Notes: generated from the letters alone by a model not told the origin. Shown: positions 7,007-60,640, numbered from the stretch's first letter. The stretch is DNA of 64,000 nucleotides from an uncultured bacterium (GCA_963713855.1 OY970209.1:1056001-1120000); one strand, 5' to 3'. Translations and numbers: made by a program.

Positions 7007-10000
7007 TCATAATTGATCCGGTCCAAAATTAACGCTACCTAAAACTGCTCTTGGTCTGTAGACATACTTATAGAGCATCAAAGCGGCTAACCCCGCTGCA
7101 GTCAATAGAGCAGCGCCTCCGATAACGCTAACAGGTATAACCGATGCAAGAATAATTGTTAGGTTATTATTTGAGCTGTTTGAGCCATCTTGACTGCTAC
7201 CATCGCCCAGAAGAGTTCCGAAAGAACCAACTGATACATCATTGGAATCGAAATTAGCTGTTGCAAGAGACTCTTCCTGATTGTTTGAACTTGTATTATA
7301 CGGAGCGAAAATTACAGCAACACAATGGGTTGAGTTAGTTGGTAAAGGATAAGATCCATTAGCAGATAAGATTCCCCCATTAACCGTAAAGAGTGAGAAG
7401 TTATTAGAATCGCTATTGGCCGTTGCTACAAAAGCACCATTTGACGTAGCGCTAATAGATTGAGGATTAAGCGAGCCTGTAGGCAGCGAGTATGACTGTG
7501 CACCACTGAGAATACCTGATTGAAAGTTAAATGCCGTAACGTCATTCGAACCACTGTTAGCCGTAACAAGAAGATTAACGGGTAAAAATGTAAGAGACTG
7601 AGGTCCGGTGGATCCTGCAGGTAAAGCTGTTAATGTACCACCGCTTAAGACACCTCCTGCAACATTGAAGACCGCAATATTGTTTGAAGCATAATTAGCA
7701 GTGGCAAGAAAAAGGCCATCCGGCGTAAATGATGTAGCTTCAGGTTGTAAAGCGCCGTTTGGTAACGGATATGCCGTTGGATTCTTTAAAATGCCTCCGA
7801 TCACCTGAAATACCGTGACGTCATTTGATCCAGCGTTGGCAACAGCAAGGTAAAGATTGCCCGGAGCAAATTGTAGCGAACTAGGGTTGGTTGATCCCGC
7901 AGGTAACGGATATGAAACAGCTCCTGTTAATTGTCCAGCTAGTAGTTTAAACACAGTTACGTCATTTGTCTTTTCGTTAGCTGTTGCAACATATGCATTA
8001 TCCGATGAAAAAGCCACTGACGTAGGAAGCGAAGGGTTTGCGAGATTGAATGGTAGGGGGAATGATTTTTTCGTTCCTAGCGTAAGAGTGTTGTTAGTTA
8101 GGTTTGCAGTAAAAAGCGTAACATCGCTTGTGTCAAAATTTGCAGTTGCAAGATAGGAGCGATCCGATGAAAATGCTACCGCAGTGGGCCCACGAGATCC
8201 CCTCAATAGTGGTGGTAGAGGGTATACTATGCCGCCGCTCAATACTCCTGCCAGTTACGGCAAATACACTAACATTAGACGAACCCTCATCCGCAATAGC
8301 AAGGTATAGGCCGTTTGGTGTAAATGACACTGATTGTGGCGAGGTAGAACTAGAAGGTAATGCATATGAAGTGGCATTACTCAATGCTCCGCCTGCTCCC
8401 ACAGTAAACACAGTCGCTTCTTATTTGATTGAACATTACCCGTAGCAAGAAATAAGCCATTAGGTGAAAATGCTATTGATTGGGCAACGGCGGAGCCACC
8501 AGGCAGAGGATATGATGTGCCAGCGCTTAAGACTTCTCCTGATCCCACCGTAAAGACTGTTACGTCTCCAGCATTAGCAGTTGCAAGATACGTACCGTTC
8601 GGCGAAAACGCTAGTGCGTATGGGAAGCTTGAACCACTGGGTAAAGGATATGAACTACCTCCACTGACGACTCCTGCGGCGTTAAAATTAAACACGGTTA
8701 CAGCATTATTGCCAAAATCGGGAGTAGCAAGGTATGAGCCGCTTGGCGCAAAGGTGAACGATCGAGGATAGCTGCCAGACGGAATTATGCCATATGAAGT
8801 AGCGCCACTCAGCACTCCTCCTGCTCCCACATTAAAAACGGTAAAATCATTTGTAACTTCGTTACTTGTTACGAGATATTGATCATTTGGTGAAAACGCT
8901 ATTGCCATGGGATTTAGAGAACCGCCAGGCAAAGGGTAGGAGGTAGCGTTGCTTAATATGCCTCCTGGTTGCACCGTAAACATAGTAACAGTAGCCGATT
9001 GCACATTAGCTGTAGCAAGGTAAGCGTTATTTTGTGAGAATGCTAATGTATAAGGCTCTAGAAAGCCGGACAATACGAGATAGGCATTTGGACCGCCTAG
9101 CACACCTCCTGTTCCCACACTAAATACACTAACCGTACCATTACCAAAGCCCAAAACTCCGCCTGCGACGGCACAATGCGAGCCGTCCGGTGAAAATACT
9201 ATCGAAGCTGGGTATGATGGGCCAGCTGGTAATGCATATGATGTTCCTGGATTTAGCACTCCTCCCGTTGCCACTGTAAATATCGTCACGTTGCCGCTAC
9301 CAAGATTAGCGGTAGCAAGATACGAATCATTTGGTGAAAACGCCACTGACCAGGGTGATCCGGAACTTGCTGGCATGGGGTACGATGTTCCATTTGTTAG
9401 ATTTCCACCTGCTCCCACGCTAAATATTGTTACATTGTTTGAGGTATTATTACCAGTAGCAAGTAGTGTTTCGTCTTGCGAAAATGTTACTGCAACGGGA
9501 TAAGTGGCACCCGGAGGCAAGGGATAAGAAATACCGACACTTAAGACTCCGCCAGTTTGCATCGTAAAGATAGTGACATCATTTGAGAGCTCATTAGCTG
9601 TTGCTACATAATTACCTGAGGGTGAAAATGCAAGCTTTCCACCAAACGAAGAGCCTGAGGGCAAAGGATATGAAGCCTGGCCGCTTAAAACTCCAGCTAC
9701 TCCTACATTAAACAGCGTTACACCGTTCCCGTTAGCTACGGCAACATATAAGCTATTAGGAGAAAATACTGCTGAGTCAGCTCCTCCAGCAGCGATCGGA
9801 TATGACGTAGCCCCGCTTAAAGTTGCTCCTGAAACATTAAATAGGGTCACATCATTTGAGCTCCGATTTGCAGTAACAAGATATAAACCATTGGGTGAAA
9901 ATGCGACTGATGCGGGGTTTTTTGAACCGGAAGGCAAAGGATATGAAGCGATAAAATTCAATGCGCCTCCAGCTTGAACGCTAAATAATGTGACGTCATT

Positions 10001-10321
10001 TGTAATATAATTAGCAGTCGCATGATACAAGCCATCGGAAGAATACGCTGATGCGTATACAAGGGATGTCGGGCCCACAGGAAGAGAATATGAAATTCCG
10101 TTGTATAAAACTCCCCCTGCTACTTTGTACATTGAAACATCGTTTGAATTGGCGGTAGCAAAATAAGAGCCATCGGGTGAATACTGTCCATCAGTAGGCC
10201 ACATAGAGGCGCCCGGTAAAGGGTATCTAACCTCGTTAAGAGCTTCTGTCCAAGAGCTCGTAAAACAAATAATCCAAAAACTTATAAAAACAGACATGTT
10301 TAAAGCACGAGAAAACAACAT
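7007..10321 (-). pseudogene. Beta-propeller repeat membrane protein (21 blades) split by two frameshifts (~8422, ~8249)
   Basis: ORFs 8381..10321, 8133..8411 and 7007..8242 join into a colinear paralog of 48359..51664 and 54203..57526. May be an assembly error rather than true decay. Confidence 0.85.
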
Positions 10322-21982: not shown

Positions 21983-22753
21983 TTAAGCGTTGGATCCCGA
22001 ACCAAAATTTAAATAATGATTTTGGTAAAGCCATACAATGACTAATACCGCTAAGGTCGCAGATAGGATTTTTGTAATGTTTGCTTGATTAGCTTCTCGA
22101 ACTTCTCTTTGACGATCTCGACGTTCCATCCGTCTTTCGCGCCGTTCTCGCTGTGCCTGAGCTGCTTCAAAGTTTGCATTCCACACTTCTTCTATCTCGA
22201 CAAGAAGTTCTTCTCTTTCAGAAGCATAGGCTTGCTGATTTGCGATGGCTCTGAGTAATTGCAATGGAGTTTCTGGTACCTCAGCAGTGGTGGCTTTAGG
22301 GTCTGCTCCAGCTACAAGAAGACCGTATATACCATCCCAATCTCCTACCATTGCAACCGCCTGCAAAGGTGTTGCTCTTATGATTGATGGGCCTCCCTCA
22401 GGGTAGACGCGAAAGTCACCCAGGTTAAAAAATGGCGCAGGGCTATTAATATCACCATATCGTCGTATATGTTTTTGCAAAGCCTTCTTATACTTGCCAG
22501 CTTGGCCAGTTAGTGAATCAGCAGCTACAGAGACAATATCCTCGGCCTGAACGTCATGGAAGGAGGCGCTTCTAGTTACATATATTCTGCCGTCGGGTAA
22601 AACAAGTCGGATTTGTTTGTTGCCGCATACAAATCTATCGTGGAGAAGGTAGCTAGTTGATCGGGGGGCGCTCCATATGGTTTTACGCTCCATACCTGTT
22701 GCTATAAAAGATAAACCGAGAGCACTTGTAAAAATAATAGTAATTATTTTCAT
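21983..22753 (-). CDS. Secreted single-ankyrin protein with Arg-rich coil and C-terminal TM (paralog 1)
   Basis: ATPLQAVA..G...LLVAGADP; colinear with 22929..23696. Confidence 0.75.
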   Translation of the reverse strand: MKIITIIFTSALGLSFIATGMERKTIWSAPRSTSYLLHDRFVCGNKQIRLVLPDGRIYVTRSASFHDVQAEDIVSVAADSLTGQAGKYKKALQKHIRRYGDINSPAPFFNLGDFRVYPEGGPSIIRATPLQAVAMVGDWDGIYGLLVAGADPKATTAEVPETPLQLLRAIANQQAYASEREELLVEIEEVWNANFEAAQAQRERRERRMERRDRQREVREANQANITKILSATLAVLVIVWLYQNHYLNFGSGSNA

Positions 22754-22928: not shown

Positions 22929-23696
22929 CTAGCCGAAGCTTGACGTAGTTGTATGATGAGAAATCAAATGCATTATCAAACCGAGCAGTATAGCAAGTAA
23001 GACTGGATTTATCTGCTCCCGCTGTTGCACAATTGCTCGCCGCCTGACTCGTTCTTCTCTTCTTCTTTGTTGTACCTCCGGCATTACCGGCGGTTCGCGT
23101 CTTTGTTCTCTTAATAGCCTAGCTGATTCAAGCGTTTCATCCCAGGCGGCTCTTACATCAGCACCAAGGCTTGAGCTTGATTCTTGATTTTGTGCGTTTG
23201 CTGCTATGAGTAATAGCTCCAATGGAGTTTCAGGAACATCACTAGTTGTCGCTTGCGAGTCAGCGCCTTCCACAAGTAATCCATGTATGATATTGAGATT
23301 GCCTAGCACTGCGGCTGCTTGAAGTGGTGTTGCCATGAGCGGCCTCAAACCTCCTTCAGGATACTCATTAGCACTTGCAAGTGTAAAAAAGGGCGCCGGT
23401 TCGTTAATGCCGCCGTACCTACCGATATGTCTTGCAAGAGCTCGCTCAATTTCTACGGCGTTGTGAACTGATCGTGGATCAGACACTGCCGCCATGTCTA
23501 TGGCACGGTGCATTGTTCTTGCCAAATATCTGCGTCCATCAGGTAAAATGAGCATTGCCTTTTTTTGATCACGTACCAATCTAGATTGGTTGAGTAAATA
23601 TACTTGCTTGGGTGCAACCCATTTTTTATCATGCATAGCATTAGCCACAGAGGCTATACCAAGAATACTTATACAGACGGTGAAGAATATTTTCAT
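22929..23696 (-). CDS. Secreted single-ankyrin protein with Arg-rich coil and C-terminal TM (paralog 2)
   Basis: Shares LPDGRxY, RYGxINxPAPFF, YPEGG and VPETPL with paralog 1. Confidence 0.75.
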   Translation of the reverse strand: MKIFFTVCISILGIASVANAMHDKKWVAPKQVYLLNQSRLVRDQKKAMLILPDGRRYLARTMHRAIDMAAVSDPRSVHNAVEIERALARHIGRYGGINEPAPFFTLASANEYPEGGLRPLMATPLQAAAVLGNLNIIHGLLVEGADSQATTSDVPETPLELLLIAANAQNQESSSSLGADVRAAWDETLESARLLREQRREPPVMPEVQQRRREERVRRRAIVQQREQINPVLLAILLGLIMHLISHHTTTSSFG

Positions 23697-24071: not shown

Positions 24072-27000
24072 TTAATAGGGTGTTTGCAACAAGTGTGCCA
24101 ATTGAGCACTTTCTTTGTAATCAAGCTGAGCCAAGGAAGCTCCCGTGTATTCATGGAAATTCTCCATGAGGCTGGCTAATAAAAAATTGAGCAGTGCATC
24201 ATCATGAAGCGCAGTGTATTCTTTAAAAATGTGCCGTAGTTCGAGAATCCAATTTTTAAGGTATGGAATGGTGTGTCTATTTTTTTTATGGGCACCAGCT
24301 AAAATTGGAATGAAGGATTGGTATGGTGTTTTATACATATTTTCGCGTAATATTTTGTCGAGTGCTTTGACTTTTTTGATGCTTGTGAGTATATGGGTTT
24401 GAGCACTTTTAGGAATGTCATGCGGATTTTTTAAGCTATGATACTGTGGTGCATTTTTTTCTAAAGAAGTTATTGAAGCATTTTTGATAATTTTTAAGAT
24501 TTCTGAGGTTGAAAATTCCTGGTAAAAGCCTTCTTGTGCGCCCATTTTTTCTGAATCTAGTGCAAATTTCTTAAGCTCGCTATTTGATTTTCCAAGAGCT
24601 ACAAAAAGCGTTTGCAATGGTGTTTTTCTATCGATAGCCTCGCGTGCCTTTTTTAGCACGTCATAGTCTATCTTTGATTGCCCATCAGTTATTACGACAA
24701 TATTTGCTCCATCAAATAGGCCGGCATTTGCTATAAGTTCCATTGCTTTTAAAAGAAAAGCTTGTATATCCGTTCCACCGCGGGTAGTTTTAAAAAGGTC
24801 TCGGTTTTTAAGGATATAAAGTGCTTCTTGAGCGTTAGTGATTTTAACCGGTTGTCCAATTTTGTTGTCAAAGGGAACAAGGACCACTTTGTGGCGATGA
24901 TGGCCCTGAGGCGAAGTATCGCTCAATGCTCTGCTTATAAATGCCAAAATAAGGGCTTCTTGGAATGTTTCTAACTCTCCTTGCATGCTGGCTGACGTAT
25001 CAAATCCGACAATTGTTATGCGCTCTTCTTCTTTTACAGGTCCTTTTTCTTTAGTGAGTTCTTTTTTGCGCTTAGAAAGCATGTATGCTTGGCCGCGAGC
25101 TATGCTTTTTAATACGTCTTGACCGGGTCTTGCTATTACTTTATTCCAATCGTTAAGGCGGTCAACAGGCACAAGGTCTCTACCGCGTTTAGGAGCATCT
25201 ACTTGCCATTTTTTACTCAATGAATACTTTGGCTTTTTTGAGCCCTGAAGTATGAAATTGCTGTGCTTATAGACAGCGTTAATAAGAAGCTTATTGTTAA
25301 GTTTTCCTGCTTTTAGGTCATCAGCTAAACGATTGATATCAATAGTTCCGGGCTTTGTAAGCTCATACTCTTGGCTTACAGCTTGCCAAATAAGCGGTGG
25401 GCAAGTTTCTTTGAACTCTTCAACAAGTGTCGTGTCTAACGGCGCGTAATCTTTAAGCCCGTCAAGTAGTTTGAGCACGGCTTTAAGCTCCTTGACAATT
25501 TCCTCTAACACATTTGTTGTAGTAGTATCTATTTTGACGTAGCTTTGGCAGTGAATGAGTATGCTTATCATTTGCATAATCTCTTTATATGTTGTGGTAA
25601 TTTTTTGCTCAAAAATTTTCCCGTTTAGGTTTTTGAGCCATTCATAGAGTGTAGGGTGCGGTTTTGTATGCAGAAGCTCACCTTCTTCTGTCTTTATTTT
25701 TTGCGCATCGTTTGCTTTATTGAACAAGCTTTTTACGGCATTTAATCGTGCAAGAATCGCATCTGAGGAAGAAAGGGGGTTAAAAGTGTACGTGCATAAA
25801 AGCTCGATAAGGTAATGCTTTAGTGGATTTATAAGGCCGTTGTTGTCATGGTGTACTGTCGGATAATCTTCTTGCCTCGCGTCATCATTTTGATCTGTGC
25901 GTTCTGTGTTTTTATTAAGCTTGCTCTTTTCAGGCTCTACATTGGATTCCTGTTGTTGGGCAGGACTTGCTGGTGCTGGATCATAGGTATGCCAAGCGTC
26001 GTCATAAAACACTTCTACCCACATGTGGGCGTTATTGGGTAGTTCGACATAACTTGTATCGCTATCTTGCTGCGCTTTATACCCGGCAACTACTCTGCAA
26101 GGAATTGCAAACACGTCCCTTATAATGCTTACCATGATATATGCTGCCATATCACACTGGAAAGAGCCACTTTTTAAAGCGGATATGGGGTCTTTTTCGG
26201 GTTTGGCATTCTTAATATAGGTATATTGTGTTGCAATATGGTCAGCTATGGCTTTTGCGATTGTTGCTGGGTGATCTGTGTCCTTGTTGTAGGCGTTAAT
26301 TATCCCTATTTGTATATCGTCGGGCCATTCGTGTACGTCAAAGCCTACGCGTTGAGTTGCAATTTCGTGCTGGAGTTGGGTGAGAGTATTTGCTTTTGGT
26401 TTTTCGAGGGTTATTGTTACCGTTGCGTACTCTTTTTTAAGTATGACGTCATATGAGCCATTGCCTCTATCTTCGACGTAGACATCAGGTTCGAGGGTTT
26501 TTGCTGGTATATAGCCGCTTGGTATTAATAGCCTAAGCAATTTTGCACCCGCAGTTTTAACGGTGAGTGTTTTTGATTCAGCTAATTCATAGGATTTTGG
26601 GGCGGCATCCCAAAACCGCTTACGTGCTTGAAAAACGTGAGATCGATTGCGGGCTATCGAGGTGTACGTTGCATGGTAAAAATAGGCAGTGTTGAAATTT
26701 GCTTCGGCTATACGCTGTTTTGGGCCTTCTATATCGGTGCTGTCTTTTGTGTGTGGAGAATACTCGTCACTAGGCATGTTCAGCTTGTCATTGTGTTCTT
26801 CGAAGGGATGTTCGCCTTTTGGGCATGCTTTAAAATGCTCAATGTATTCGTCAAGTGCTTGGAGAGCTAAAACGTTTGATTGAAGATCTTTAAGCTGTGT
26901 TTCTTTGCTTTTTAAAAGCATAAGTGCATCATCGATAATTGCATCGACAAGCTTAGTATTGAATGTTTTTGCCCGAATTTGTTTAAGTTCGTTTTGTATT

Positions 27001-27251
27001 TTAAACAGTGGAGAGCCGATGCACTCATCCTCTATAGAACGCTTTAAGAGATTTATATAGATACGATTTGCTTCATCGATTGTTATAGCAAACCGGAAAG
27101 GATTTTTGTATATGCCGAGTCTCTCTTGATAGTCGTGTAAGGCTTTCAGGGTAGTTTTTTTTAATGCTTGATATTCGCCACATGGCAGGGTTAGGGATAG
27201 GTTTATCCACAGCATTGCCGGTATGATGTACTTATTCGTCTTCATTTTCAT
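24072..27251 (-). CDS. Transglutaminase-like domain fused to a C-terminal vWA domain
   Basis: FQCDMAA...IPCRVVAGY...HMWVEVFYDDAWHTYDP (Cys-His-Asp triad); MIDAS elements GFDTSASM, GGTDI, VITDG. Confidence 0.88.
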   Translation of the reverse strand: MKMKTNKYIIPAMLWINLSLTLPCGEYQALKKTTLKALHDYQERLGIYKNPFRFAITIDEANRIYINLLKRSIEDECIGSPLFKIQNELKQIRAKTFNTKLVDAIIDDALMLLKSKETQLKDLQSNVLALQALDEYIEHFKACPKGEHPFEEHNDKLNMPSDEYSPHTKDSTDIEGPKQRIAEANFNTAYFYHATYTSIARNRSHVFQARKRFWDAAPKSYELAESKTLTVKTAGAKLLRLLIPSGYIPAKTLEPDVYVEDRGNGSYDVILKKEYATVTITLEKPKANTLTQLQHEIATQRVGFDVHEWPDDIQIGIINAYNKDTDHPATIAKAIADHIATQYTYIKNAKPEKDPISALKSGSFQCDMAAYIMVSIIRDVFAIPCRVVAGYKAQQDSDTSYVELPNNAHMWVEVFYDDAWHTYDPAPASPAQQQESNVEPEKSKLNKNTERTDQNDDARQEDYPTVHHDNNGLINPLKHYLIELLCTYTFNPLSSSDAILARLNAVKSLFNKANDAQKIKTEEGELLHTKPHPTLYEWLKNLNGKIFEQKITTTYKEIMQMISILIHCQSYVKIDTTTTNVLEEIVKELKAVLKLLDGLKDYAPLDTTLVEEFKETCPPLIWQAVSQEYELTKPGTIDINRLADDLKAGKLNNKLLINAVYKHSNFILQGSKKPKYSLSKKWQVDAPKRGRDLVPVDRLNDWNKVIARPGQDVLKSIARGQAYMLSKRKKELTKEKGPVKEEERITIVGFDTSASMQGELETFQEALILAFISRALSDTSPQGHHRHKVVLVPFDNKIGQPVKITNAQEALYILKNRDLFKTTRGGTDIQAFLLKAMELIANAGLFDGANIVVITDGQSKIDYDVLKKAREAIDRKTPLQTLFVALGKSNSELKKFALDSEKMGAQEGFYQEFSTSEILKIIKNASITSLEKNAPQYHSLKNPHDIPKSAQTHILTSIKKVKALDKILRENMYKTPYQSFIPILAGAHKKNRHTIPYLKNWILELRHIFKEYTALHDDALLNFLLASLMENFHEYTGASLAQLDYKESAQLAHLLQTPY

Positions 27252-28722
27252 GGCTCAATGCGATTTGTCGCTCAATGTCGTACACCTCTTCGAGTTCGTT
27301 TTGATTGGTCATACATTCGAGTAGTGCGTAATATTCTGCTGAATCTTTGAGGATATTTTGGTGCTTTTCGATAGATTTAACAAATAATTGCTTAAATCGT
27401 TCTTGTTCTTCTAAAAGATACTCTACTGTTGTCTTTTCTCTTTTATCTTTTGGATAGTAGTGGTTAGATGTGAAAAATGCGCCGAAATCGATATCTATTT
27501 GGGTTTGGTTATTGTTTATTGGAAAGACGAGTTTTGTAACACCGAAAGAGACGGTTGTTAGGACAAGGTAGGCTCGCCAAAGCGAGAAGGGGCCTACTGG
27601 ATATCGGTTATGTGGAAGGCTTTTAAGTGTATTTTCTAAAGCGTCTATATCACTTAGCAAGCTTGAGGTTAAAAGATCAAAGAAGACCGACATAAGTATG
27701 ACATCACGCATTTTTTCTCTTAAGCGTTCGGTATATTCTGCTGTAGGATAATAGGGATCTTGTGTGTCTTTGCTGGAGTCTCTTTCTTCTTGGGTTTCGA
27801 TAGCAAGAATAGTTTCTTTTCTCAATAAGTTGCTAAACTCACGTAATAGGCTTAAAAACTCTTCATTAGGTCTTACTATAAGGTAAGCGAGAGTTCTTAA
27901 TTCTTGCCAGTCAAGCGGATTGGCTGTAGTATTTTCTTTTTTTTGTGCATTGAAAGCCGCGTCAAGTTCGGCAAGATAGTTATAGTCCAGTTCAGCCTGG
28001 TCTTCTGGTGCAAGCCAGTTTGGAATAAAGGCGATTGTGGTAAATCTGTTTAATAGTGCGGCGGCAGTGGAGCGTTGGCCGTTTTCGGTAAACTGTTGAT
28101 ATATTTCGTAGATATTGGAATTGCTTGTCGAAAGTATAGTTTCGAGTTCTGATATGATGACTTTGTTACCTGCCAATATTTTTCGTTCAATTAGTAGACT
28201 TAATAGCGCAGCTAAAGTTGCTGGATTTCCCTTATCGATTTCATCTATGAGTGCAACGCGAAAGTCTGCAAGAGACCCTTTAGTGTTGACTTCAAAGCGC
28301 CCTTCTTTAGCGGCAGTAAAATTTTGTCCGCCAACAAATACTTGTTCGTTCATCATCTGGTGCATCTGTAACTCGAAAGCGATCTCGTTATCTTGATCAT
28401 AGAGCCACTTAATGAATTTTGATTTTGCTCCCCCTGGTGGCCCATGAAGGAACATGTTTCCTTCCATAAGCCGGGTGATATGAAAAGCATGGTACACGGA
28501 ATCGAATTGTTTGAACTCTTTTTGAAAAAGAGCTTTTCTTCTACGTGCAATAGCTTGTGATTCTTGTAAGATTTTTTTTGAATGGTCTGTTAGCCCTTGA
28601 TAGTTTCCCTCGGTATCTCTTTTTATGTACTTTGTTGTATCTATTGAATCTAAAGCTGCTGCGCGCAACACCAGTAGTGCGCCAATCAAGCTTAATTTAC
28701 TAAAAGACGCGTGAATATTCAT
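27232..28722 (-). CDS. RavA/MoxR-like AAA+ ATPase with signal-like N-terminus
   Basis: Walker A GPPGGAKS, Walker B LIDEIDK, LLSLLIERK, STSN, ALLNRF. RBS GAGG before ATG 28722; overlaps the vWA gene start. Confidence 0.88.
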   Translation of the reverse strand: MNIHASFSKLSLIGALLVLRAAALDSIDTTKYIKRDTEGNYQGLTDHSKKILQESQAIARRRKALFQKEFKQFDSVYHAFHITRLMEGNMFLHGPPGGAKSKFIKWLYDQDNEIAFELQMHQMMNEQVFVGGQNFTAAKEGRFEVNTKGSLADFRVALIDEIDKGNPATLAALLSLLIERKILAGNKVIISELETILSTSNSNIYEIYQQFTENGQRSTAAALLNRFTTIAFIPNWLAPEDQAELDYNYLAELDAAFNAQKKENTTANPLDWQELRTLAYLIVRPNEEFLSLLREFSNLLRKETILAIETQEERDSSKDTQDPYYPTAEYTERLREKMRDVILMSVFFDLLTSSLLSDIDALENTLKSLPHNRYPVGPFSLWRAYLVLTTVSFGVTKLVFPINNNQTQIDIDFGAFFTSNHYYPKDKREKTTVEYLLEEQERFKQLFVKSIEKHQNILKDSAEYYALLECMTNQNELEEVYDIERQIALSHENEDE

Positions 28723-28873
28723 AAAGATCCTCGTCCGGCGCTGCGTACGCTGCATGCTTAACCTTCTTGCTTTCAAGAACGTAAGGATTTTATTTTTGTG
28801 CCGGCTCTCTAGTTTATCAATTTACTTATCTAAGCCAACTTCTTTTTTAGAAAACGCGCATTTTTAAACGATA

Positions 28874-30505
28874 TTATGTTGGTTCTAAGTGAATTTTGAG
28901 TGAAGATTGTAAAGATATATTTTCTAGTTGGTGTCGTTGATCATGGTCAACATACAAGTCAGTTAATGAAGTGATAGATGCTAGAGGTTGTAGGCTTTGT
29001 ATTGGATTGTGGGCAATACGGACTTCTGTCAGGTGTTTGAGTGATGAGAGTGGTGAGATGTCTTCTAGTTGATTATCGCTTAGATCAATTATTTTTATAT
29101 TTAGGTTTTTAAGTGGCTCAATGTTTTTGATTTTGTTGTTAGCCAATTTTAGCTCTTTTAAGTTTATAAGGTAGCGCAGTGGTGAGCTATCTATTATGGT
29201 GTTATTGCTTAGATTGAGTTTTTCAAGTTTTTCGAGTAAGCCTATGGGTTCTATGCTTTGTATTTTGTTACTATTAGATAATGTTAATGATGTCATTCGT
29301 CTCATGGTTGCAAAAGGCGTTTTGCCTGCCATTGTATATAGTGCGCTCAAAGTATTTTGTATTCTTTGTGGATACTTGTCTTTGTGGTTGATTATAACGC
29401 GCAGATAGTCATCTTTATGTATAGGAATGGCTAAAGAATCATCCCATCGCCATTCGTTATCATTTTGGAATAAGTCGTTTTCGAATTGTAAAGTATATCT
29501 TTGGGTCTTTGCATTACTGGCTTTTTTGTGCCTGACGAGCCTAAATCCTAAGGTTTTTCCAGTCGTGTCTTTGTAATAGATAGGTCTTACTACATTTTCG
29601 AGAGTGGTTTTACCCATTACAGCATAAGCTGAACTGAAGACAAGGCCGCTATACAGTTTTTCACTTTTTTTTGTGTAGAGCGTGGATGCGTCTCTTGTAA
29701 ACTCCCAGATTGTTCCTGTCTCCTCATCATTATCTGTGGTAGCGAATGTTGTTTTAAATGCTTTTAGTTTTGAGGTTTTTGAAGGCCATTGTTTTCCTAC
29801 GTTTGTTTGTAAGAAAGCCTCATATTCATTAATGGATGGGAGCATATAGGTATATTTTTCATTGTTTTGATTCATTTTACCAACAAGCTCTTCGATGGTG
29901 GTTAAAGAGGCGTAGGTCATGAAGTTATTTGGCTCCATAGTGATCGTTTTGTAATCTATTGTTATCTCTTGTGTGCCTTTGTGTTCGAGCTCTTCTGGCA
30001 ATTGGAGCATTATGGTTGCCCATTGGTATTCAGTGATTGGTGTTTCTGTTATTTCTATATCATCATCGATGTTAAAGTTTTCTTGGTTGAGGCTTTGATA
30101 CATTCCTGCGGGTATACGGGTAAAATGCATTGGTTTGTATAGGTCTTGGGTGTTTTTATGGGCCTTATCGCGCAATTGACTTTCCTTTTGAAATACCTTG
30201 AGCATTTTTTGGCACCATTTTTTTAGCTCTTTTTTATCTATTTTGTGCTTATAGAGCTCTACAATTTTATTGAGCTGCTTCCAATAGATAAATACGGTAT
30301 GAGAAGCATATGCTTGGGCTTTAGGTATTGGATTATAGAGGATTTGTTTTTCTAGTATTTTTTGAATGCTTTCTGTTTTGAGGATGTCTTTATTTGCTAA
30401 GCTTTCTAGGAATAGAAGGACTTTTTCGGTTTGTGGTTTGTTTGGTCCCGTTTTGGCAGTTGAAACAATGATAAGGCTTAGTATGAGAGCTGCGATAAGC
30501 TTCAT
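28874..30505 (-). CDS. Secreted FGE-sulfatase-like domain plus internalin-like LRR protein
   Basis: FTRIPAG, TPITEYQW, LPSINEYE, GTIWEF, GFRLVR; then LxxLxLSNN/LANN/LSDNQL repeats. Confidence 0.8.
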   Translation of the reverse strand: MKLIAALILSLIIVSTAKTGPNKPQTEKVLLFLESLANKDILKTESIQKILEKQILYNPIPKAQAYASHTVFIYWKQLNKIVELYKHKIDKKELKKWCQKMLKVFQKESQLRDKAHKNTQDLYKPMHFTRIPAGMYQSLNQENFNIDDDIEITETPITEYQWATIMLQLPEELEHKGTQEITIDYKTITMEPNNFMTYASLTTIEELVGKMNQNNEKYTYMLPSINEYEAFLQTNVGKQWPSKTSKLKAFKTTFATTDNDEETGTIWEFTRDASTLYTKKSEKLYSGLVFSSAYAVMGKTTLENVVRPIYYKDTTGKTLGFRLVRHKKASNAKTQRYTLQFENDLFQNDNEWRWDDSLAIPIHKDDYLRVIINHKDKYPQRIQNTLSALYTMAGKTPFATMRRMTSLTLSNSNKIQSIEPIGLLEKLEKLNLSNNTIIDSSPLRYLINLKELKLANNKIKNIEPLKNLNIKIIDLSDNQLEDISPLSSLKHLTEVRIAHNPIQSLQPLASITSLTDLYVDHDQRHQLENISLQSSLKIHLEPT

Positions 30506-30575
30506 GTTCTACTCACTTTTTTGGCTTTTTCGTTAATGAAGCTTATCGAAAAATTAAATTTGCACAAATCTGGCC

Positions 30576-31439
30576 TTAGCTTTTTAGTGCGCCGTGTTCT
30601 TTTAGTTGACGTAGTAACCCGCGGATTCTTTTTTCTTTAAAATGTATAGCGGTCATGCCTAATTTACGCGCTGCGTGTATGTTTTCTTCCTGGTCATCAA
30701 TAAATATGCATTCTTGTGGATTTAATTTTGCTTTATCAAGCAGCTCGTGGAAGAAGGCGGGATCGGGCTTTACCTTTTTTTCGAATCCTGAGATGAAGAT
30801 ATTTTCTTTTTTAAAATGACGGAATATGTGCCTCAATGAGTCATCGTAATACATGAGATCAAATGAATCTGGGTCCCAGTTTGAAGCGATGTATGATTCG
30901 ATATCTGGGTTATTCGCGCATTTTTGAAGAACTATTCGCATGAGTGGCAGTGGTTTCATATTTTTGGCATAGAGTTTTGGAGAGAACAACAATTTAAGTG
31001 ATTTTTGTAAAAATTGCTTTTCACTGTCGGTCCAATATTCTTTTTGTTGATCGAGGAGTCTGAATGATTCTTTGAGTGTTTCTTTGCTTGAAATTTTGCC
31101 TTCTAGCCAGTCGGTCATGCGTACTGGTAGTAATCGTCCGCCTGGTTCTTTTACTCCTATCTCATTTACGCCGGAATAATCTTCTTCTAGAACATTAAAT
31201 AATCTTTCGGTCAGAAGGCCTTGCATGCCTTTGCCGTGCTGAAGATAGAGTTTCATGCATTGACCGAGACCAAGATAATTGGCAATGCTTAGCTTTCTGG
31301 GCTTTACGAGCGTATATCCAAGGTCCCAGATGATTGCTTTTTTCTTGATCGTGCTGGTATTTCCAATCCCGCTGATTATGGCACATGGTCCGCTTATTAA
31401 CGCGCAGGTCAACACAACGTTCGTCACTATTTTTTTCAT
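30576..31439 (-). CDS. HAD-IA family phosphatase with N-terminal hydrophobic segment
   Basis: IIWDLGYTL, IASNW, KPDPAFF, CIFIDDQEENIHAARKLGM. Confidence 0.88.
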   Translation of the reverse strand: MKKIVTNVVLTCALISGPCAIISGIGNTSTIKKKAIIWDLGYTLVKPRKLSIANYLGLGQCMKLYLQHGKGMQGLLTERLFNVLEEDYSGVNEIGVKEPGGRLLPVRMTDWLEGKISSKETLKESFRLLDQQKEYWTDSEKQFLQKSLKLLFSPKLYAKNMKPLPLMRIVLQKCANNPDIESYIASNWDPDSFDLMYYDDSLRHIFRHFKKENIFISGFEKKVKPDPAFFHELLDKAKLNPQECIFIDDQEENIHAARKLGMTAIHFKEKRIRGLLRQLKEHGALKS

Positions 31440-31845: not shown

Positions 31846-32757
31846 TTACGCGTTGTGAGGGTGCATTCTATAGGTTATTACCTGTGTTATTCGAGTGGAT
31901 ATTTGAGTGAGGGTATTGTATACGACAGTTGTGGGTATTCGTATGTATTGTGGCACATATACTATGTTTGGCGGAGTGGCCTTTTTTATATGTAGATAAA
32001 GGAGCAGGCTTGAAAGGAGTCCTAGGCCGACAGGTATAACTTGATAGCGATTGACTAATTCGGTAAATATCTGGGCTTTTGTTGGGGTAATAGTTTTAAG
32101 CCAGACCTCTGAGATCTCGCTCAGTGAAGTGATCCTATTTTTATTGTGGATATCTCTTAGGGCGTTATAAGCAAAGATGGCTTCTTTTTCTCTTTTAGGT
32201 GTGACCAATAATTCTAATGGGTCTACAAGTAGTTTGTCAATGAGCGCTTTTTGACCAGACATGGAATGAAGATCTAGTATTCTGTGTTGAGATTCTTTCC
32301 AAGTTAGATAGTCTTCATCCTCGAGCAATGCAAAAGCTACTTGTGGTATTTCTGGCTCTTTCTGTTCATCGTAGATATCCGATTGATCTTGTATGATGGT
32401 TCTTTCTAATAGTATGTAATAGAGGGCATGTAAAAATAGCTTGTTTCCATGAAATTTTATTTCGTGCGGCTTTAAGTTGGCGTCTTTGCCAAATAAAAAT
32501 CCCTCCGGGGCTAGACCGAAATTAAGTCTGTTATACGTAAAGACAGCTTTTTTATTAGCATCTATCTTTAGTTCGGAGAGATCAATGACTTCGTATAATA
32601 GTTCAATGACTTTTCTCTTGAGTTCAAGTTCATTGAGTTGTGGATGTTTTCGCTGTAGCTCTGCCTGGAAGAATTTAGTTTCACCGTACAATGAAGATAA
32701 GGACTTTGTTGGGCTGAGCATAAAGAGAAACAGAGTAAGAACAAGCATTTTTTTCAT
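31846..32757 (-). CDS. Hypothetical secreted protein with late TM helix
   Basis: MKKMLVLTLFLFML signal; VIPVGLGLLSSLLLYL TM. Confidence 0.75.
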   Translation of the reverse strand: MKKMLVLTLFLFMLSPTKSLSSLYGETKFFQAELQRKHPQLNELELKRKVIELLYEVIDLSELKIDANKKAVFTYNRLNFGLAPEGFLFGKDANLKPHEIKFHGNKLFLHALYYILLERTIIQDQSDIYDEQKEPEIPQVAFALLEDEDYLTWKESQHRILDLHSMSGQKALIDKLLVDPLELLVTPKREKEAIFAYNALRDIHNKNRITSLSEISEVWLKTITPTKAQIFTELVNRYQVIPVGLGLLSSLLLYLHIKKATPPNIVYVPQYIRIPTTVVYNTLTQISTRITQVITYRMHPHNA

Positions 32758-36410: not shown

Positions 36411-37466
36411 GTGAAGCGATTTTTTTATATAGGTTTTTTTATTGTGTTAGCACTTATGGGCAATACGGCATTTTCCTATCAGGTAACAAGAGCAGCCTTT
36501 GATCTGGGCTCAGGCAAGTTTAAAATGCTTGTTGCCCGTGTTGACACCGAAACGTCAACAGTTCAAGAAGTTCTTTACTCAGGCAGCGTTGAAGTTCGTC
36601 TTGCTGATGACTGGCGTGAAAATAAAGGCTCTTTAAGTGAAGTGGCTCAAAAGCGGGCCTTAAATGCGTTGGTTTTTTTAAAGGAAAAGGCATTGGAGCA
36701 CGCAGCTACTGAATTTAGCGCAGTCGCTACCGCTATTTTTAGAAAGGCCTCTAATGGACAAGCTCTTCTTGAAACACTCACCAAAACAACCGGCATTCCC
36801 GCGACCGTAATCTCTCAAAGGCAAGAAGGGCTTATAGGCTTTCATACGATGATGGTTGCTTATCAAGATGGGGCACGAGCAATCTCTTGGGATTCCGGCA
36901 ACGCAAGCTTTCAAATAGTTGCTGCTAGGAATAACGAGTACAAAGTGTATGAAGGTTCCTGGGGGAATGCTCTTGTCGTAAGTGCATTTATTGAAAAACT
37001 AAGAAAAGAGCCCTATTCAGTAGGCTACCCAGTAAATCCTGTAAGTACCGACGAGATTGAAAAGCTTGTCGCATTAATTCAAAGAAAGCTTTCTTTGCCC
37101 GACTGGTTAAAAGAAGAGATTTCAAGTGAAACGCTGGTTCGGGGTATAGGGGAAAACGAGTGCATATTCGCAGTTACGGCGCGAGCGCTCAATGCAACAA
37201 CTTATACCCAAGAAGAGGTACGCGATGCTCTTTTTGGTTTGGCCGGATATACAAACAGCGATGAGCTATTTAAAAGGCTTAATCCCACAAACCAAAGACT
37301 TGTTGTTACCCAAGTTGCACTTTTGTATGCCGTTATGTCTGCCTTTGGTATTAAAAAAGTATCTTATAAAAAGACCTCCGGCAGCAACCTTGGACTTCTT
37401 GTTACTCCTGAGTTTTGGCCTTTGCAGCATCCATCCCTTACAAAAGGCCAGAGCGTGATATTATAG
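36411..37466 (+). CDS. Ppx/GppA-like (ASKHA) phosphatase with signal peptide
   Basis: AAFDLGSGKFK, AVATAIFRKASNG, VISQRQEG, WDSGNASFQI. Confidence 0.88.
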   Translation: MKRFFYIGFFIVLALMGNTAFSYQVTRAAFDLGSGKFKMLVARVDTETSTVQEVLYSGSVEVRLADDWRENKGSLSEVAQKRALNALVFLKEKALEHAATEFSAVATAIFRKASNGQALLETLTKTTGIPATVISQRQEGLIGFHTMMVAYQDGARAISWDSGNASFQIVAARNNEYKVYEGSWGNALVVSAFIEKLRKEPYSVGYPVNPVSTDEIEKLVALIQRKLSLPDWLKEEISSETLVRGIGENECIFAVTARALNATTYTQEEVRDALFGLAGYTNSDELFKRLNPTNQRLVVTQVALLYAVMSAFGIKKVSYKKTSGSNLGLLVTPEFWPLQHPSLTKGQSVIL

Positions 37467-37473: not shown

Positions 37474-38127
37474 ATGTACTTTAAAAGCGCGCCTTTCGTA
37501 ATCTGCCTTATCGCCTTCGGGATACAAAATCCACCTGACGAAAATAGTAAACTGTATGAGCTTCTGGCGACATTGCATTACAAAAAACTGCCCTACGTTG
37601 ACGTTGAGCATACCACTCCCTTAGTGATCTGTTTTTCCGGGACACCCGGCATGGGAAAGACCTACCTTGCCAAGAAAATGGAGGAGGAGTATCAAGGTTT
37701 ACGCATCAGTACCGACGAAATCCGCGAACTATTAAAGGCTCAGGGTATTACAGTGAGAAATGAAAGCATTCTTGAAGAATATCTTCTCTATCTTTTAAAT
37801 AGCAACACCATCATCAATAAGATACTTATACTTGATTGCAGCATCGATAGAAGGGCTTCGAAGCTTTTTTCTTTTTTAAACGCCAAAAAAATACCCTATT
37901 TTGTTATCCGTATTGCTGCATCGCCTGAATGCGCTATAGAGCGCATCGCTCAACGTGAAAATGAAAACAGCGCTCATTATATTCGCTTTTTTTCTCGCTG
38001 GTATGAAGATTATGAATCTTTCTTAGAAACGCATACGCCCGATTGTACCATCGATAACGAAGTAAACGGTCCGGTAGCACTTGATGAGGCTTTTAAAGGC
38101 ATTAATGCGCTTCTAGGTAGAACCTAA
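37474..38127 (+). CDS. P-loop kinase (AAA_33-like)
   Basis: SGTPGMGKT, ISTDEIR, LILDCS, RIAQR. Confidence 0.8.
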   Translation: MYFKSAPFVICLIAFGIQNPPDENSKLYELLATLHYKKLPYVDVEHTTPLVICFSGTPGMGKTYLAKKMEEEYQGLRISTDEIRELLKAQGITVRNESILEEYLLYLLNSNTIINKILILDCSIDRRASKLFSFLNAKKIPYFVIRIAASPECAIERIAQRENENSAHYIRFFSRWYEDYESFLETHTPDCTIDNEVNGPVALDEAFKGINALLGRT

Positions 38128-43942: not shown

Positions 43943-45412
43943 TTAGGCGGCTACCGGAATATCTTGTAACTTTGCTCTATTTTCTTCATTCTTTTTTTCG
44001 GTCGAAAAATATTTCTTCAATACTTTATCTTCAAAATAGGTCATGAGTTTAAGCTTAATTGGCCTAAAGCCCTTATCAGTATCTTCATCAACGAGCTTAT
44101 TGATGGCATCAGTATCTTCTTCGGTAAAATCTTCTTGTGAAAGAGCGAGTTCTGCCTGCTCATGAAGCTGTAATACTGATGGAAAGAGTTCTTTCCACAC
44201 AGCAGTTTTTTTGTATTCTTTTTCGTAGCCAGCAAAAGGAACAACATGGAGGCGACTAAGCAGAGCGTCATCTGTAACAACCGTTTTTCCTCCTAAAACG
44301 ATTCCAAGATGTCCAATATAGACATCGGCCCTTAAATAAGGGCTATAAAAAGTACTGGTTTCTGATTCAAGCAAGGTGAGAATAAAGGACAAGAGGTCAC
44401 TATTTGCTTCATTTAACAATATTCTATCTGCATCATCAATCAGTAAGATCATATTAGCCGCTTTTTGAGCCGTGTCTTTAGTAAGCGCATTAATCAAGAT
44501 ACCCGGATCATCATAATCTCCAATAAGCTTATGCATGTCCACGTTTGCTAAAGAAATAACTGCAATCGGTAAGCCAAGCGCCTCAGCTACCATTTTTGCA
44601 GCTCTCGTTTTGCCCACACCTGGTTCACCATAAAAATATGCTGCAATTTTACGCACTGCTGTAGCAGTTGAAGCAGCTGCATGCCGAATACAATACCGCT
44701 TGAGCTCGAGCGTTGTTTGCGGGCTATAACCTTGCAAGACGGCGTCAATTCGCTCACTGTCGTACACAATTTTATGATTTTCAAAGGGCAATTTAAGTAT
44801 CGTTTCAATAATTTTGATGTCATGTTCACGTGGCCCTGGATGTGGTGAACAGCGCACGGATACAAAATGTTTCTCAACGACACGTTGAAGCTCGAGTTGT
44901 ATGCGAGGCTTAGATCTAACGTACGTAATTTCTAGTCGATCGAGCTCACTTTTTGATCCTTGAGATAAATAAACCTGCTTAATGGAATCTATGAGGGATA
45001 CTAACTTGCTTATGGGCTCAGAACTGGCGTATGTCAAAAGCTGCCCAAGAGCAGCTCCGCTTCCAAGACCTACCGCCATGGGAACTTTATCAAGGAGATT
45101 ACTATATCGGTAAAGCACAAGAGCAGCTGGCAGAAAAGGTATAGCGTAGATCGCTGAATCTGTTATAGTCCACAAAGCACCAAAAATGCGCCTGTATTGA
45201 AAGTGCGTTTCTAGCATGTCTTGCTGAGTTTCTTCGTCCGCTTCTTGAAATGCCTCCGCCGCTATTAGTGCTGACTGATCGAAAAGATCGTAATTTTTTT
45301 GGCAATAAGCAGGAGAGAAATCCTGATTCATGGCCTCGATTTGATTGTTGATGAAGCACCCAAATAAGAGGACGAGAAAATATTTTTTCATGTTGATTTG
45401 TATAGGTTTCAC
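43943..45412 (-). CDS. Secreted AAA+ ATPase (Lon-like AAA module, no protease domain)
   Basis: YGEPGVGKT...AEALGLP, LLIDDADR, DALLSRL, GYEKEYK, GFRPIK. Confidence 0.8.
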   Translation of the reverse strand: MKPIQINMKKYFLVLLFGCFINNQIEAMNQDFSPAYCQKNYDLFDQSALIAAEAFQEADEETQQDMLETHFQYRRIFGALWTITDSAIYAIPFLPAALVLYRYSNLLDKVPMAVGLGSGAALGQLLTYASSEPISKLVSLIDSIKQVYLSQGSKSELDRLEITYVRSKPRIQLELQRVVEKHFVSVRCSPHPGPREHDIKIIETILKLPFENHKIVYDSERIDAVLQGYSPQTTLELKRYCIRHAAASTATAVRKIAAYFYGEPGVGKTRAAKMVAEALGLPIAVISLANVDMHKLIGDYDDPGILINALTKDTAQKAANMILLIDDADRILLNEANSDLLSFILTLLESETSTFYSPYLRADVYIGHLGIVLGGKTVVTDDALLSRLHVVPFAGYEKEYKKTAVWKELFPSVLQLHEQAELALSQEDFTEEDTDAINKLVDEDTDKGFRPIKLKLMTYFEDKVLKKYFSTEKKNEENRAKLQDIPVAA

Positions 45413-47967: not shown

Positions 47968-48004
47968 GCTGGATTCCGGTTTTTGAAAAGTAGTAAGGAG
48001 TAAC

Positions 48005-48328
48005 ATGATGTTGCCTAGAAGTATTCCTCAGAAACATTCTTTTAAGCTTAGTTTTTTTCTTCCATAAGCTCAGTTGCCCAACCTGTTAGCGAAATTAGCT
48101 ATGCTTTGCCCGGTGCCTCTTTCTGGCCTTCCGGTGCACAATTTTCGCCCAACGGTCAGTATCTTGCAACTGCGAATAAAAATGATGTATCAGTTTTTTA
48201 ATGTGCAAGCGGGCGGAACGTTGCTTGCAGGCTCGTCCTCTTTACTACCTCCGGGTACTACGACCCCCTACGCAGCAGTATTTTCGCCTGATAGCTCTTA
48301 TCTAGCTACCGCTAACTTCAATACATAG
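48005..48328 (+). pseudogene. Decayed 5' fragment of a beta-propeller paralog
   Basis: RBS AAGGAG; across frames reads SEISYALPGASFWPSGAQFSPNGQYLATAN..VFSPDSSYLATAN, with several frameshifts, then stops. Confidence 0.85.
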
Positions 48329-48358
48329 GCTGGCTTTAAATCCGAAAAGTTTGGAACA

Positions 48359-51300: not shown

Positions 51301-51664
51301 CGCTCAGCACTCCACCAGCTCCAACTTGAAATATGGTTACGTCGTTGGTAAATGAATTAGCAGTAGCAAGGTATAATCCGTTAGGCGAAATCACTGAGCA
51401 ACTGGGAGGCGTTAATCCTACCGGTAATCGATAAGAACTCATTGCACTAAGCGCTCCAGTTCCCGATACGCTAAATATTGACACATCGTCAGAACCATTA
51501 GCGCTAGCAAGGTATGATCCATTAGGCGAAAATACTGCAGCATTAGGCCATTTAGAAACGCCTGGCAAAGGGTAGCTGATCTCGCTGAGTGCTTTACTCA
51601 GACAGTTCCAAGAAATAAGACTTAAGCTAAAAAGTAAGTATCGTACGCTTGATTGAGCCGTCAT
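48359..51664 (-). CDS. Beta-propeller repeat type-I membrane protein (21 blades)
   Basis: Signal peptide, repeats, TM, GSVNYGPEEEL tail. Confidence 0.92.
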   Translation of the reverse strand: MTAQSSVRYLLFSLSLISWNCLSKALSEISYPLPGVSKWPNAAVFSPNGSYLASANGSDDVSIFSVSGTGALSAMSSYRLPVGLTPPSCSVISPNGLYLATANSFTNDVTIFQVGAGGVLSGAATYPLPSGSLSPQSIAFSPDGSFLATVNFESGDVTIFTVGVGGILNVGNSYSLGPTAFLDGYIGYSSSLTFSPNGLYLVVAHFSQIVLFTIGSNGTLSSPTTYSGATGTYAATFSPDSSLLASAGVSNVVLLTVGTGGTLSNPTTYSLPTGSNNASSVAFSPNGQYLATANSGSNDVTLFSVTGQTLGTGTSYSIPSSNPRPNSITFSPNSTNLVTANTFSNSVTVFTVQSGGTLNAGTTYALPTNSIAPESVAFSADGAYLATANRYSNNVSIFSVGSGGALSNAASYQVISNTTQPTSIAFSPNGSYITTTNKYANSVTVFNVQAGEVLGTGISYPLPVGSYAPSGLAFSPSGNYLATANSDSQLAGSVTIFTVNGGTLNAGTSYSLPASTWDPLAIAFSPDGSYVATANGSSNVTIFSVGVGGSLSTGTSYSVPSYFAGATSLSFSPDGLHLAVVSGQVTMFNVGSGGVLSGATSYSLPSGGVFSLAFSADGSYIAIDTGIGKVTTFSVGAGGVLSLLATYPLPTGDYFDNSIAISPNSMFTAVANTGSSDITLFTSTGGTLNTGTSYILPQLSISSQRPSAVSFSSDRSYLVTANFGSSDVALFDVNSSNNTFTLTAKKAFPLPYNLQTPSNPTSIAFSANNSLVATGNHNSNDVTLFHVNSGQLIKPISYSLPPGSTNPSGIAFSPDDLYVVVCNRDSNNVVVFDITGASLTNPTAYALPAGSTEPAALAFTPNGAFLASANHGSNDVTTWSFSAGALSSGASTALPTGSSGPQSIAFLPLSNTFLLITANGDSNDVSVFDFQAGTLNNGQSYPLPSGTTNPQSIAAASSTNGTYIATANSASSSFTLFTVSNGVLSQGISFNLPANSTQCVGITFAPDGVHLATANALSDDVTVASLFGDGNTNGAQGGDGGDGLSSNNDLAIILATTLTAGIVGTAVLLTTAGVVAFLIYKHVHRPRTSLGSVNYGPEEEL

Positions 51665-51930
51665 GAAGCTCTCCCTTTTAAGACCATGTTTTCATGTACC
51701 AATATCGATTGGAAGAACAAACTAATGCAAAGTGTCTTTTGCAACCACCACCAATTTTACGTTCGGGTAAATATAGCACTCATGGTTCTTTTGTCAATCG
51801 GACTATAGATGAACTTATGGCTTGCATTCTCATCTGATAAAGATAGTCCTTTAATAGCTTCGACAATGCCAAGTGGCTTTTCCTGAGCGGTGCGTCTTCA
51901 TAAAATGCTTCTACTTGCCGTAGCTCTTTT

Positions 51931-53789: not shown

Positions 53790-53829
53790 AGCAAATTCCT
53801 CACTTCATTCTACTTGAGACATTCGGCTG

Positions 53830-60594: not shown

Positions 60595-60640
60595 AATTTG
60601 CTGATCCCCAAATCGACTTAGAGATTAGCAGACTTTTTAT

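Follow-up and report, generated by a model that had tools for sequence, protein, structure and literature searches.

The ATPase RavA assembles as a hexameric ring. The periplasm is generally held to lack ATP, which is why AAA+ motors of bacteria are regarded as cytoplasmic. The systems most closely comparable to the locus analysed here are the RavA-ViaA pair of Escherichia coli, the MoxR-vWA-YebA/TgpA operons (PMC3495828, PMC3507681), the propeller-bearing MoxR-vWA ternary systems (PMC7159879, PMC8195603) and the Esr pathway of oral Actinobacteria (10.64898/2026.09.08.750141). The locus lies in a 64,000-nucleotide stretch of DNA from an uncultured bacterium (GCA_963713855.1 OY970209.1:1056001-1120000), referred to below as the window, and encodes a RavA-clade MoxR ATPase, a fusion of a transglutaminase-like and a vWA domain (TG-vWA), and a variable protein built on an unnamed “dock” domain, here called the binder. 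These three components form a real, conserved three-part system that is apparently unpublished: a description of it was not found in open-licence text, most subscription journals being outside the search, and the supplement of PMC7159879 gave no relevant match, although gene-neighbourhood source data may lie outside the part searched.

Locus organisation and gene linkage

Open reading frame (ORF) calling places four co-oriented genes on the minus strand of the window: a HAD-IA hydrolase (30576..31439), the binder (28874..30505), the ATPase (27232..28722) and TG-vWA (24072..27251). A preliminary description of this DNA had reported the same four genes and an overlap between the ATPase stop and the start of the vWA gene; both hold, the overlap being 20 nt, or 14 nt if TG-vWA is counted from its second ATG, with gaps of 70 and 151 nt between the other genes. 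The ATPase ORF can be read as 514 aa from a TTG (27232-28776) or, beginning with the ATG at 28722 (protein start MNIHA), as 496 aa. The latter is most likely the start, because GAGGA lies 5 nt upstream of it and the database call is also 496 aa. A promoter scan returned 22 sites against 23.1 expected, so that a good-looking site 5′ of the HAD gene carries no weight.

Scanning the ATPase alignment against species-representative genomes yielded 21 related loci, from records titled Bdellovibrionales, Bacteriovoracia, Pseudobdellovibrionaceae, Oligoflexales, Myxococcales/Myxococcaceae, Deltaproteobacteria, Proteobacteria and Altimarinota. Since the TG-vWA alignment was too divergent for such a scan, these loci were found via the ATPase and are biased towards ATPase-bearing sites. 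The ATPase lies immediately 5′ of a TG-vWA gene in 20 of the 21; one locus (L027) holds a truncated ATPase only, and in another (L019) TG-vWA is split into two ORFs. Fourteen loci have sequence downstream, and a dock-bearing gene follows in 13 of them (12 detected by hidden Markov model (HMM) and L018 by alignment; the exception is L026). In the window the binder gene is instead upstream of the ATPase. The conserved unit is therefore a set of three genes: RavA-clade ATPase, TG-vWA and dock-bearing binder.

The preliminary description had counted the HAD hydrolase as a fourth member, and here it did not stand: the linkage it proposed extends across genomes for the ATPase, TG-vWA and the FGE/LRR (formylglycine-generating enzyme fold, leucine-rich repeat) binder but not for the hydrolase. 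Relatives of the hydrolase occur in 35 of 61 related genomes, compared with 3 of 61 for TG-vWA, and are found nearby in 1 of the 21 loci only, about 6 kb off and on the opposite strand, which rules the gene out of the module.

Distant ATPase matches were found in 22 further genomes out of 401 from the phylum of a Bdellovibrionales metagenome-assembled genome (MAG). Sixteen of 19 such distant loci show a leader-bearing single or tandem AAA protein near a vWA or TG-vWA gene; the exceptions are a fragment (L073), a locus without vWA partner within 19 kb (L082) and an ordinary leaderless pair (L088). Among the proteins encoded nearby are leader-bearing WD40, ankyrin, LRR, FGE and propeller proteins, and five of the loci have an FGE domain fused to the ATPase C-terminus itself (AAA-AAA-FGE in L076, L077, L079 and L080; AAA-FGE in L089). 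Searches for mobile copies gave only RavA-like matches (25-36% over less than half of the query), in 8 plasmid and 2 phage records.

Several features of these loci deserve mention in their own right. Leader-bearing proteins of 800-1415 aa with two RavA-like AAA units in tandem occur in L074-L077 and L079-L083, four of them ending in FGE, and their two AAA copies form separate groups in a quick tree. The binder array of genome G008 (L007) is interrupted by two transposase-like ORFs (L007:4870-5748 and 7934-9082; families judged by eye), and one of its binders is broken at its LRRs. In L010 (1-7398, minus strand), a leader-bearing protein of more than 2466 aa combining an inverse-autotransporter beta domain, a SecA-like DEAD domain and a P-loop lies 2.5 kb from the module.

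The ATPase and the TG-vWA fusion protein

The ATPase carries a leader (residues 1 to about 24), Walker A GPPGGAKS (94-101) and Walker B LIDE. It matches Pfam bpMoxR (PF20030; 1.7e-14, 53.8 bits against a cut-off of 27), a model that is not specific since the ordinary RavA-like protein of L088 also exceeds its cut-off, and AAA_5 (1.2e-10). For the family profile, RavA is the best match in the Protein Data Bank (PDB) at E 1.6e-15, covering profile positions 84-207 only, whereas the NCBIfam RavA model scores 39.9 bits against a cut-off of 681. Leaders are lacking in six RavA/MoxR-type controls taken from plasmids and L088, whose Walker A lies at residues 42-62, and in the quick tree, which is unrooted, carries no clade test and contains one spurious row (the second motif of P0188), they separate from all leader-bearing rows (SH-aLRT 90). 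The window ATPase groups there (support 99) with those of G001, G008 and the Pseudomonadota-titled L010, the surrounding rows being otherwise titled mostly Bdellovibrionota or Myxococcota. This topology fits a single origin of the putative export and transfer between host-dependent bacteria.

The AlphaFold2 (AF2) model of the 1059-aa TG-vWA protein (mean pLDDT 82.6, pTM 0.46) shows a leader, a helical part (24-139), a TgpA-like domain (158-430; 25962..26780, minus strand), a disordered linker (433-472), a second helical part (476-664), the vWA domain (744-926; 24474..25022, minus strand) and C-terminal helices (949-1056), in a single chain of soluble type devoid of a transmembrane (TM) bundle; the folds of the helical domains were barely probed by the fold search. 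Pfam recognises Transglut_core (3.6e-12) and, below cut-off, VWA_2 (2.4e-4), and the NCBIfam ViaA model is reached weakly (E 1.6e-4, 21 bits against a cut-off of 500). The transglutaminase/papain-fold domain spans the two subdomains of TgpA (6g4h; Z 18.1, root-mean-square deviation (rmsd) 4.5 Å over 243 aligned residues; HMM match to 6g49 at E 2.1e-8), and the vWA domain superimposes on that of Rpn10 (Z 16.5, rmsd 2.9 Å, 165 aligned). An Atlas search with TG-vWA returned one Transglut_core cluster at 0.92, which is a lead only.

The intact catalytic triad and complete metal ion-dependent adhesion site (MIDAS) claimed earlier for this protein are both borne out. The triad Cys366-His409-Asp424 is intact in 83 of 96 full-length homologues, 3 having substitutions and 10 lacking an alignable TG domain, and the MIDAS residues D751, S753, S755, T827 and D856 (D751-x-S753-x-S755) are kept in 95, 94, 95, 90 and 94 of the 96, respectively. 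Because TG is not alignable in those 10 homologues, the motor-vWA-binder core rather than the enzyme is the constant part; on this view the vWA half is the invariant partner, whereas the cysteine enzyme is usually carried along but can be done without.

Binder proteins and the dock domain

The window binder (543 aa) consists of a leader, the dock domain (30125..30436, minus strand), an FGE/C-type-lectin fold (about residues 127-328) and LRRs (about 395-540). Pfam detects LRR_4 in it and no FGE match at E 0.01; the FGE label comes from a homologue that aligns with it over 573 columns at 30% identity (E 2e-73) and itself matches PF03781 at 3.9e-9. Catalytic FGE needs active-site cysteines. The sole cysteine of the window binder is residue 98, within the dock, and most FGE-only dock copies have 0-2 cysteines after the dock. 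As the FGE part of the window binder contains no cysteine, it is read from its sequence as a binder rather than a formylglycine-generating enzyme.

The dock, about 105 N-terminal residues following the leader, is common to all binders of the system by alignment; it is helical, has an Asn-Pro motif and is modelled as five helices (AF2, pLDDT 88.4). It bears no family name: no Pfam family matched more than one of 28 members, the best Atlas score of 0.80 is at chance level, a word-index search for longer proteins gave 4 matches only, and the best hit of a fold search among 48161 chains (VIA, Z 6.0) shows neither a relative nor a new fold. A homotypic origin from part of TG-vWA or of the ATPase was rejected, hhalign giving no match.

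Behind the dock, FGE/C-lectin, FGE plus LRR, RCC1 and other propeller modules alternate. Among 37 further dock proteins, 25 match FGE, 3 RCC1, 1 ankyrin and 8 nothing, with no enzyme besides the FGE fold. Dock copies number 1-17 per genome (10 genomes) against one ATPase match, the window genome having one, and in a ten-gene tandem array the dock is 76% identical while the binder part is 35-62% identical. The proposal that the FGE/LRR protein acts as a targeting subunit thus gains in force, in that it behaves as one of a swappable dock-bearing repertoire. A search confined to the reverse transcriptase family PF00078 gave no match in G000 (91% complete), G008 or G264; G001 and G265 have one, with no link to the system apparent.

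Among the 261 genomes of the window genome's phylum, dock and core ATPase occur in the same 3, and among the 401 of the Bdellovibrionales MAG's phylum in the same 4 (ATPase at E <1e-140). The dock sequences of G261 and G330 did not contribute to the dock profile. From the ATPase-FGE fusions, the dock is predicted to bind the ATPase. In complex modelling, the dock-ATPase pair scored 0.43 against 0.00 for the best control and 0.00 when the ATPase was replaced, with at least 84% of contacts agreeing between runs and partner pLDDT of at least 74. In calibration, 116 of 157 solved pairs attained the mark, as did 2 of 215 mismatched ones; scores up to 0.60 comprise 18 of the 157 solved pairs and both passing mismatches, and the three-chain job is unlike the calibration. 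The model thus lends weak support to binding between dock and ATPase.

The window also holds an expanded family of lactonase/WD40-like propellers (7007-8242, 8381-10321, 51931-53523 and ORFs of 760-1117 aa within 45679-63961), three of them confirmed by Pfam in a scan that did not cover the long ORFs. They are without dock domain, as the genome has one dock match only.

Signal-like leaders

Leaders were scored by a crude hydropathy rule (threshold 2.0 for the best 9-mer) and not by SignalP; ORFs recognised by eye as ribosomal proteins and RNA polymerase score negative. Counts were made on 56 full-length ATPase homologues (of 60 rows, 4 partial ones being dropped) and on 96 TG-vWA homologues of 950-1500 aa. 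Leaders were found in 48 of the 56 ATPases compared with 7 of 489 internal Met starts, in 79 of the 96 TG-vWA proteins compared with 56 of 1789 internal Met starts, and in 36 of 40 further dock ORFs; most misses look like wrong start calls, either too long or too short. Leaders are thus conserved in homologues of all three proteins, which is one of the points on which the preliminary description had staked its reading of an exported module. The four leaders it quoted are present in the window, but as evidence they are weak: a run of four is expected by chance at about 6% in this genome. It is the conservation of predicted leaders across distant homologues that exceeds chance. In the ATPase the leader is the least conserved part (column conservation 0.28; the AAA core has 0.77).

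At their N-terminus the leaders are basic or neutral; a short hydrophobic core follows, and an A-x-A-like site is found in 35 of the 48 ATPase and 59 of the 79 TG-vWA leaders. Under the positive-inside rule, a basic N-terminus stays inside and the rest of the chain lies outside. Just past the leader, a Cys-x2/3-[LFIY] motif is present in 31 of 37 module proteins, compared with 55 of 138 other leader-bearing ORFs of the same loci (L011-L013, L017, L019-L021, L024-L028 and L071-L089 minus L088), and in 152 of 549 leader-bearing ORFs of G000; this is possibly a sorting or disulfide feature.

The window genome encodes signal peptidase I, BamA, two secretins of about 1000 aa, two GspE/PilB-like ATPases and pilin-like genes, so a Sec-then-secretin route is available and may, we propose, be used by the module. 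Tat export by way of the Arg-rich TTG extension of the ATPase is unlikely, TatC not having been found in G000, G001 or G008. As a separate observation, the two secretins lie about 5 kb apart in one cluster (G000:C1:253381-261441), also in G001 and G008, which makes this an unusual candidate exit route for the large leader-bearing proteome.

Other proteins encoded in the window also carry leaders. A second AAA ATPase (43943-45412, minus strand; Pfam AAA, 8.4e-12) has a signal-like leader (MKKYFLVLLFGC...) in a context unrelated to the module, and the window genome may export more than one ATPase. A Ppx/GppA-family phosphatase (36411-37466, plus strand) and an AAA_33/zeta-like P-loop kinase (37474-38127, plus strand), both of normally cytoplasmic type, likewise have signal-like leaders.

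Source genome and ATP supply

The window genome comprises 1.52 Mb in one contig of 41% GC (0.414, the module being at 0.389), with two ATP/ADP-translocase-like genes and many leader-bearing ankyrin proteins. Its phylum counts 261 genomes, and the 21 families listed under that phylum are also those composing its order. From this we infer that it belongs to the Babelota (Dependentiae, TM6), parasites of protists; in Chromulinavorax, a signal peptide has been predicted on 44% of coding sequences (PMC6561590). An ATP/ADP translocase was found in 10 of 20 core carriers of the system, the window genome included, in 0 of 18 distant-clade carriers and in 2 of 42 controls. Carriers with a translocase would have access to host ATP in the host itself and also in the periplasm, which it must cross.

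Proposed function and alternatives

We propose that the module is exported and that, guided by its receptors, it remodels and modifies proteins of the host or prey at the expense of host or prey ATP, a reading to which we give about an even chance. Each chain would be exported by Sec and folded in the periplasm, then either released through a secretin/GspE-type apparatus into a host compartment or prey, or put to work at the bacterial surface. The hexameric ring would carry binders through the dock domain; the MIDAS would grip the target and the motor would expose it to the Cys-His-Asp site, which would probably cleave or deamidate the protein chosen by the docked binder. Eukaryotic ligases use exchangeable substrate receptors, and the logic proposed here resembles such a ligase rebuilt from bacterial MoxR parts. 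A cleavage or deamidation step would agree with the peptidase function put forward for transglutaminase-like (TGL) domains linked to MoxR (PMC3495828).

A number of observations weigh against this proposal. By the hydropathy rule, 549 of 1126 soluble ORFs of the window genome (at most one later TM stretch) score signal-like, so that four leaders in a row are unremarkable there and the case must rest on homologues. The window TG-vWA leader itself is borderline (best 9-mer hydropathy about 1.9), and the database form P0001 is missed by the rule. Nor can the rule separate a cleaved signal from an uncleaved anchor, and 20 of the 48 ATPase leaders have a 19-residue window of hydropathy at or above 1.8, compatible with an anchor. 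The TG domain is absent in 10 of the 96 homologues. The solved protein nearest to it, TgpA, has cross-linking activity in vitro and is associated with the envelope of its own cell (PMC3507681), which favours a role at the bacterium's own surface. Import of host ATP is not general, 10 of 20 core carriers and all 18 distant ones being without translocase match; for these the argument rests on predation assumed from record titles. As to the dock, 6 of the 7 co-occurrence genomes fed the ATPase or dock profile and kin are not independent, and the dock profile found no match in the AAA-FGE fusion linker (hhalign probability 0.4%; no match in a second search).

The strongest alternative, which we nevertheless regard as unlikely, is that the exported complex works on the envelope of its own cell, where motor and vWA protein would position the binders and the TG enzyme would cross-link them as variable adhesins or sensors that recognise host or prey, with ATP drawn from the periplasm, through which host ATP has to pass on its way to an inner-membrane translocase. 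The TG domain is closest to TgpA (PMC3507681), which faces the periplasm and is a transglutaminase in vitro, and in the Esr pathway retention of a secreted propeller sensor depends on the predicted transglutaminase of a MoxR/vWA cluster (10.64898/2026.09.08.750141). FGE-fold domains act as receptor binders of phage tails (PMC7159879), the window LRRs score against internalin models, if far below cut-off, and tandem arrays with diverging tips would suit adhesins. However, the five FGE-ATPase fusions together with the weak ATPase-dependent dock score fit a motor subunit better, systems without TG domain exist, and the three window proteins show no apparent membrane anchor besides the leader.

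Export may also be illusory, the leaders being uncleaved anchors or export-delaying tags of a membrane-proximal cytoplasmic unfoldase-protease like the MoxR-vWA-YebA system of Zhang and Aravind. The ATP problem would then disappear, a MoxR-vWA-TGL protease near the membrane has already been proposed (PMC3495828), and 28 of the 79 TG-vWA leaders, besides the 20 ATPase leaders just mentioned, are of anchor-grade hydrophobicity over 19 residues. We consider this improbable given the signal-type architecture of most leaders, their free variation in sequence, their presence on every component including the binders, and the basic N-terminus, which would place the remainder of the chain outside. About as improbable, in our view, is an extracytoplasmic MoxR-vWA ternary conflict system for periplasmic defence, with binders sensing phage or competitor proteins at the envelope that the motor-enzyme pair destroys: its three-part logic and FGS and propeller modules recall the ternary systems (PMC7159879, PMC8195603), and patchy spread (3/261 genomes), insertion sequence elements in the G008 locus and fast-diverging binders are typical of conflict genes, but the carriers are small-genome parasites and predator-type genomes instead of the multicellular bacteria of those two papers, leader-bearing ankyrin, WD40, RCC1 and LRR proteins are the usual toolkit against a eukaryotic host (PMC6561590), and the three genomes lacking a reverse transcriptase match give no sign of a diversity-generating retroelement.

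Returning to the exported machine, a broader picture can be held only tentatively, namely that a bacterial AAA+ family has left the cytoplasm, and that protist parasites and predatory bacteria export a motor with a receptor library into their victim, where it would unfold and cleave or deamidate proteins on the victim's ATP, independently of ubiquitin, as the bacterial equivalent of a degradation machine programmed by receptors. Lineages that depend on hosts but are not related to one another would have exchanged the system. Confirmed export of the motor would make this categorically new. The motor, its vWA partner and the receptors keep their putative export signals across four phylum-level groups, offering a direct test of extracytoplasmic ATP use. 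The system would offer a first mechanistic way into the many ankyrin, LRR and propeller proteins that carry leaders in TM6-type parasites and Bdellovibrionota, and it would define a new adaptor domain within a modular, receptor-programmed protein-modifying machine that could be rebuilt in vitro from three soluble proteins.

Neighbouring genes

The HAD hydrolase (287 aa, signal-like leader; TIGR01509 above cut-off, Pfam HAD_2), a co-oriented neighbour outside the conserved module, has two paralogues elsewhere in the window genome. Upstream of it lies a co-oriented, leader-bearing ORF of 303 aa (31846-32757, minus strand) with no Pfam match and no paralogue in the genome. On the other side of the module, two tandem paralogues (21983-22753 and 22929-23696, minus strand), 42-45% identical, have leaders, a hydrophobic C-terminus and no Pfam match, and at least 5 further related stretches occur elsewhere in the genome. 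Elsewhere (G000:C1:648685-657085), the RNA polymerase beta/beta-prime region appears in several ORFs under crude calling, reflecting either assembly frameshifts or a split gene.

Comparison with known systems

With RavA-ViaA of E. coli (NF010054/NF008230; PDB 3nbx, 6q7l), the module shares a RavA-clade core with intact Walker A and B and a gene overlapping that of a downstream partner with C-terminal vWA. The window proteins are far under both equivalog cut-offs (39.9/681 and 21/500 bits), and ATPase and partner bear leaders by the crude rule whereas the controls are leaderless. Moreover, the partner has double the length and includes a TG domain, and a third, variable binder family is obligate.

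The MoxR-vWA(DUF58)-YebA/TgpA operons (PMC3495828), such as PA2875-2874-tgpA of Pseudomonas aeruginosa (PMC3507681), likewise combine a MoxR-type ATPase, a vWA protein and, by gene context, a TgpA-type TG. There, however, the TG protein is separate and a multi-pass membrane protein, whereas in the window TG and vWA share one soluble chain, the ATPase belongs to the RavA clade and has a leader, and the system includes binders as well.

The propeller MoxR-vWA ternary systems (PMC7159879, PMC8195603) resemble the module in having MoxR, vWA and a variable third part with FGS or propeller modules, and bpMoxR as best match with a GxxxxAKS P-loop. By definition, the vWA component there strictly carries a propeller C-terminal to vWA, where window residues 949-1056 are helical in the model, and the third part consists of TM, TPR and propeller, in contrast to dock, FGE and LRR in the window and dock and propeller without TPR in its relatives. 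The dock domain has no Pfam match, and among those neighbours that were scanned, none matched VMAP, iSTAND, TERNS3 or the FtsH component in Pfam. The term “signal peptide” is absent from the main text of both papers.

The Esr pathway of oral Actinobacteria (10.64898/2026.09.08.750141) also brings MoxR, vWA and a transglutaminase together in a cluster that encodes a secreted, variable protein of the beta-propeller type as well. It signals inward through a Ser/Thr kinase, a phosphatase and an FHA protein, none of which is conserved in window-type loci, and only its sensor is described as secreted in the text available. In its working the module thus resembles a MoxR-vWA chaperone pair to which a variable third component has been added, and it falls outside what defines RavA-ViaA, the YebA/TgpA operons and the propeller ternary system alike.

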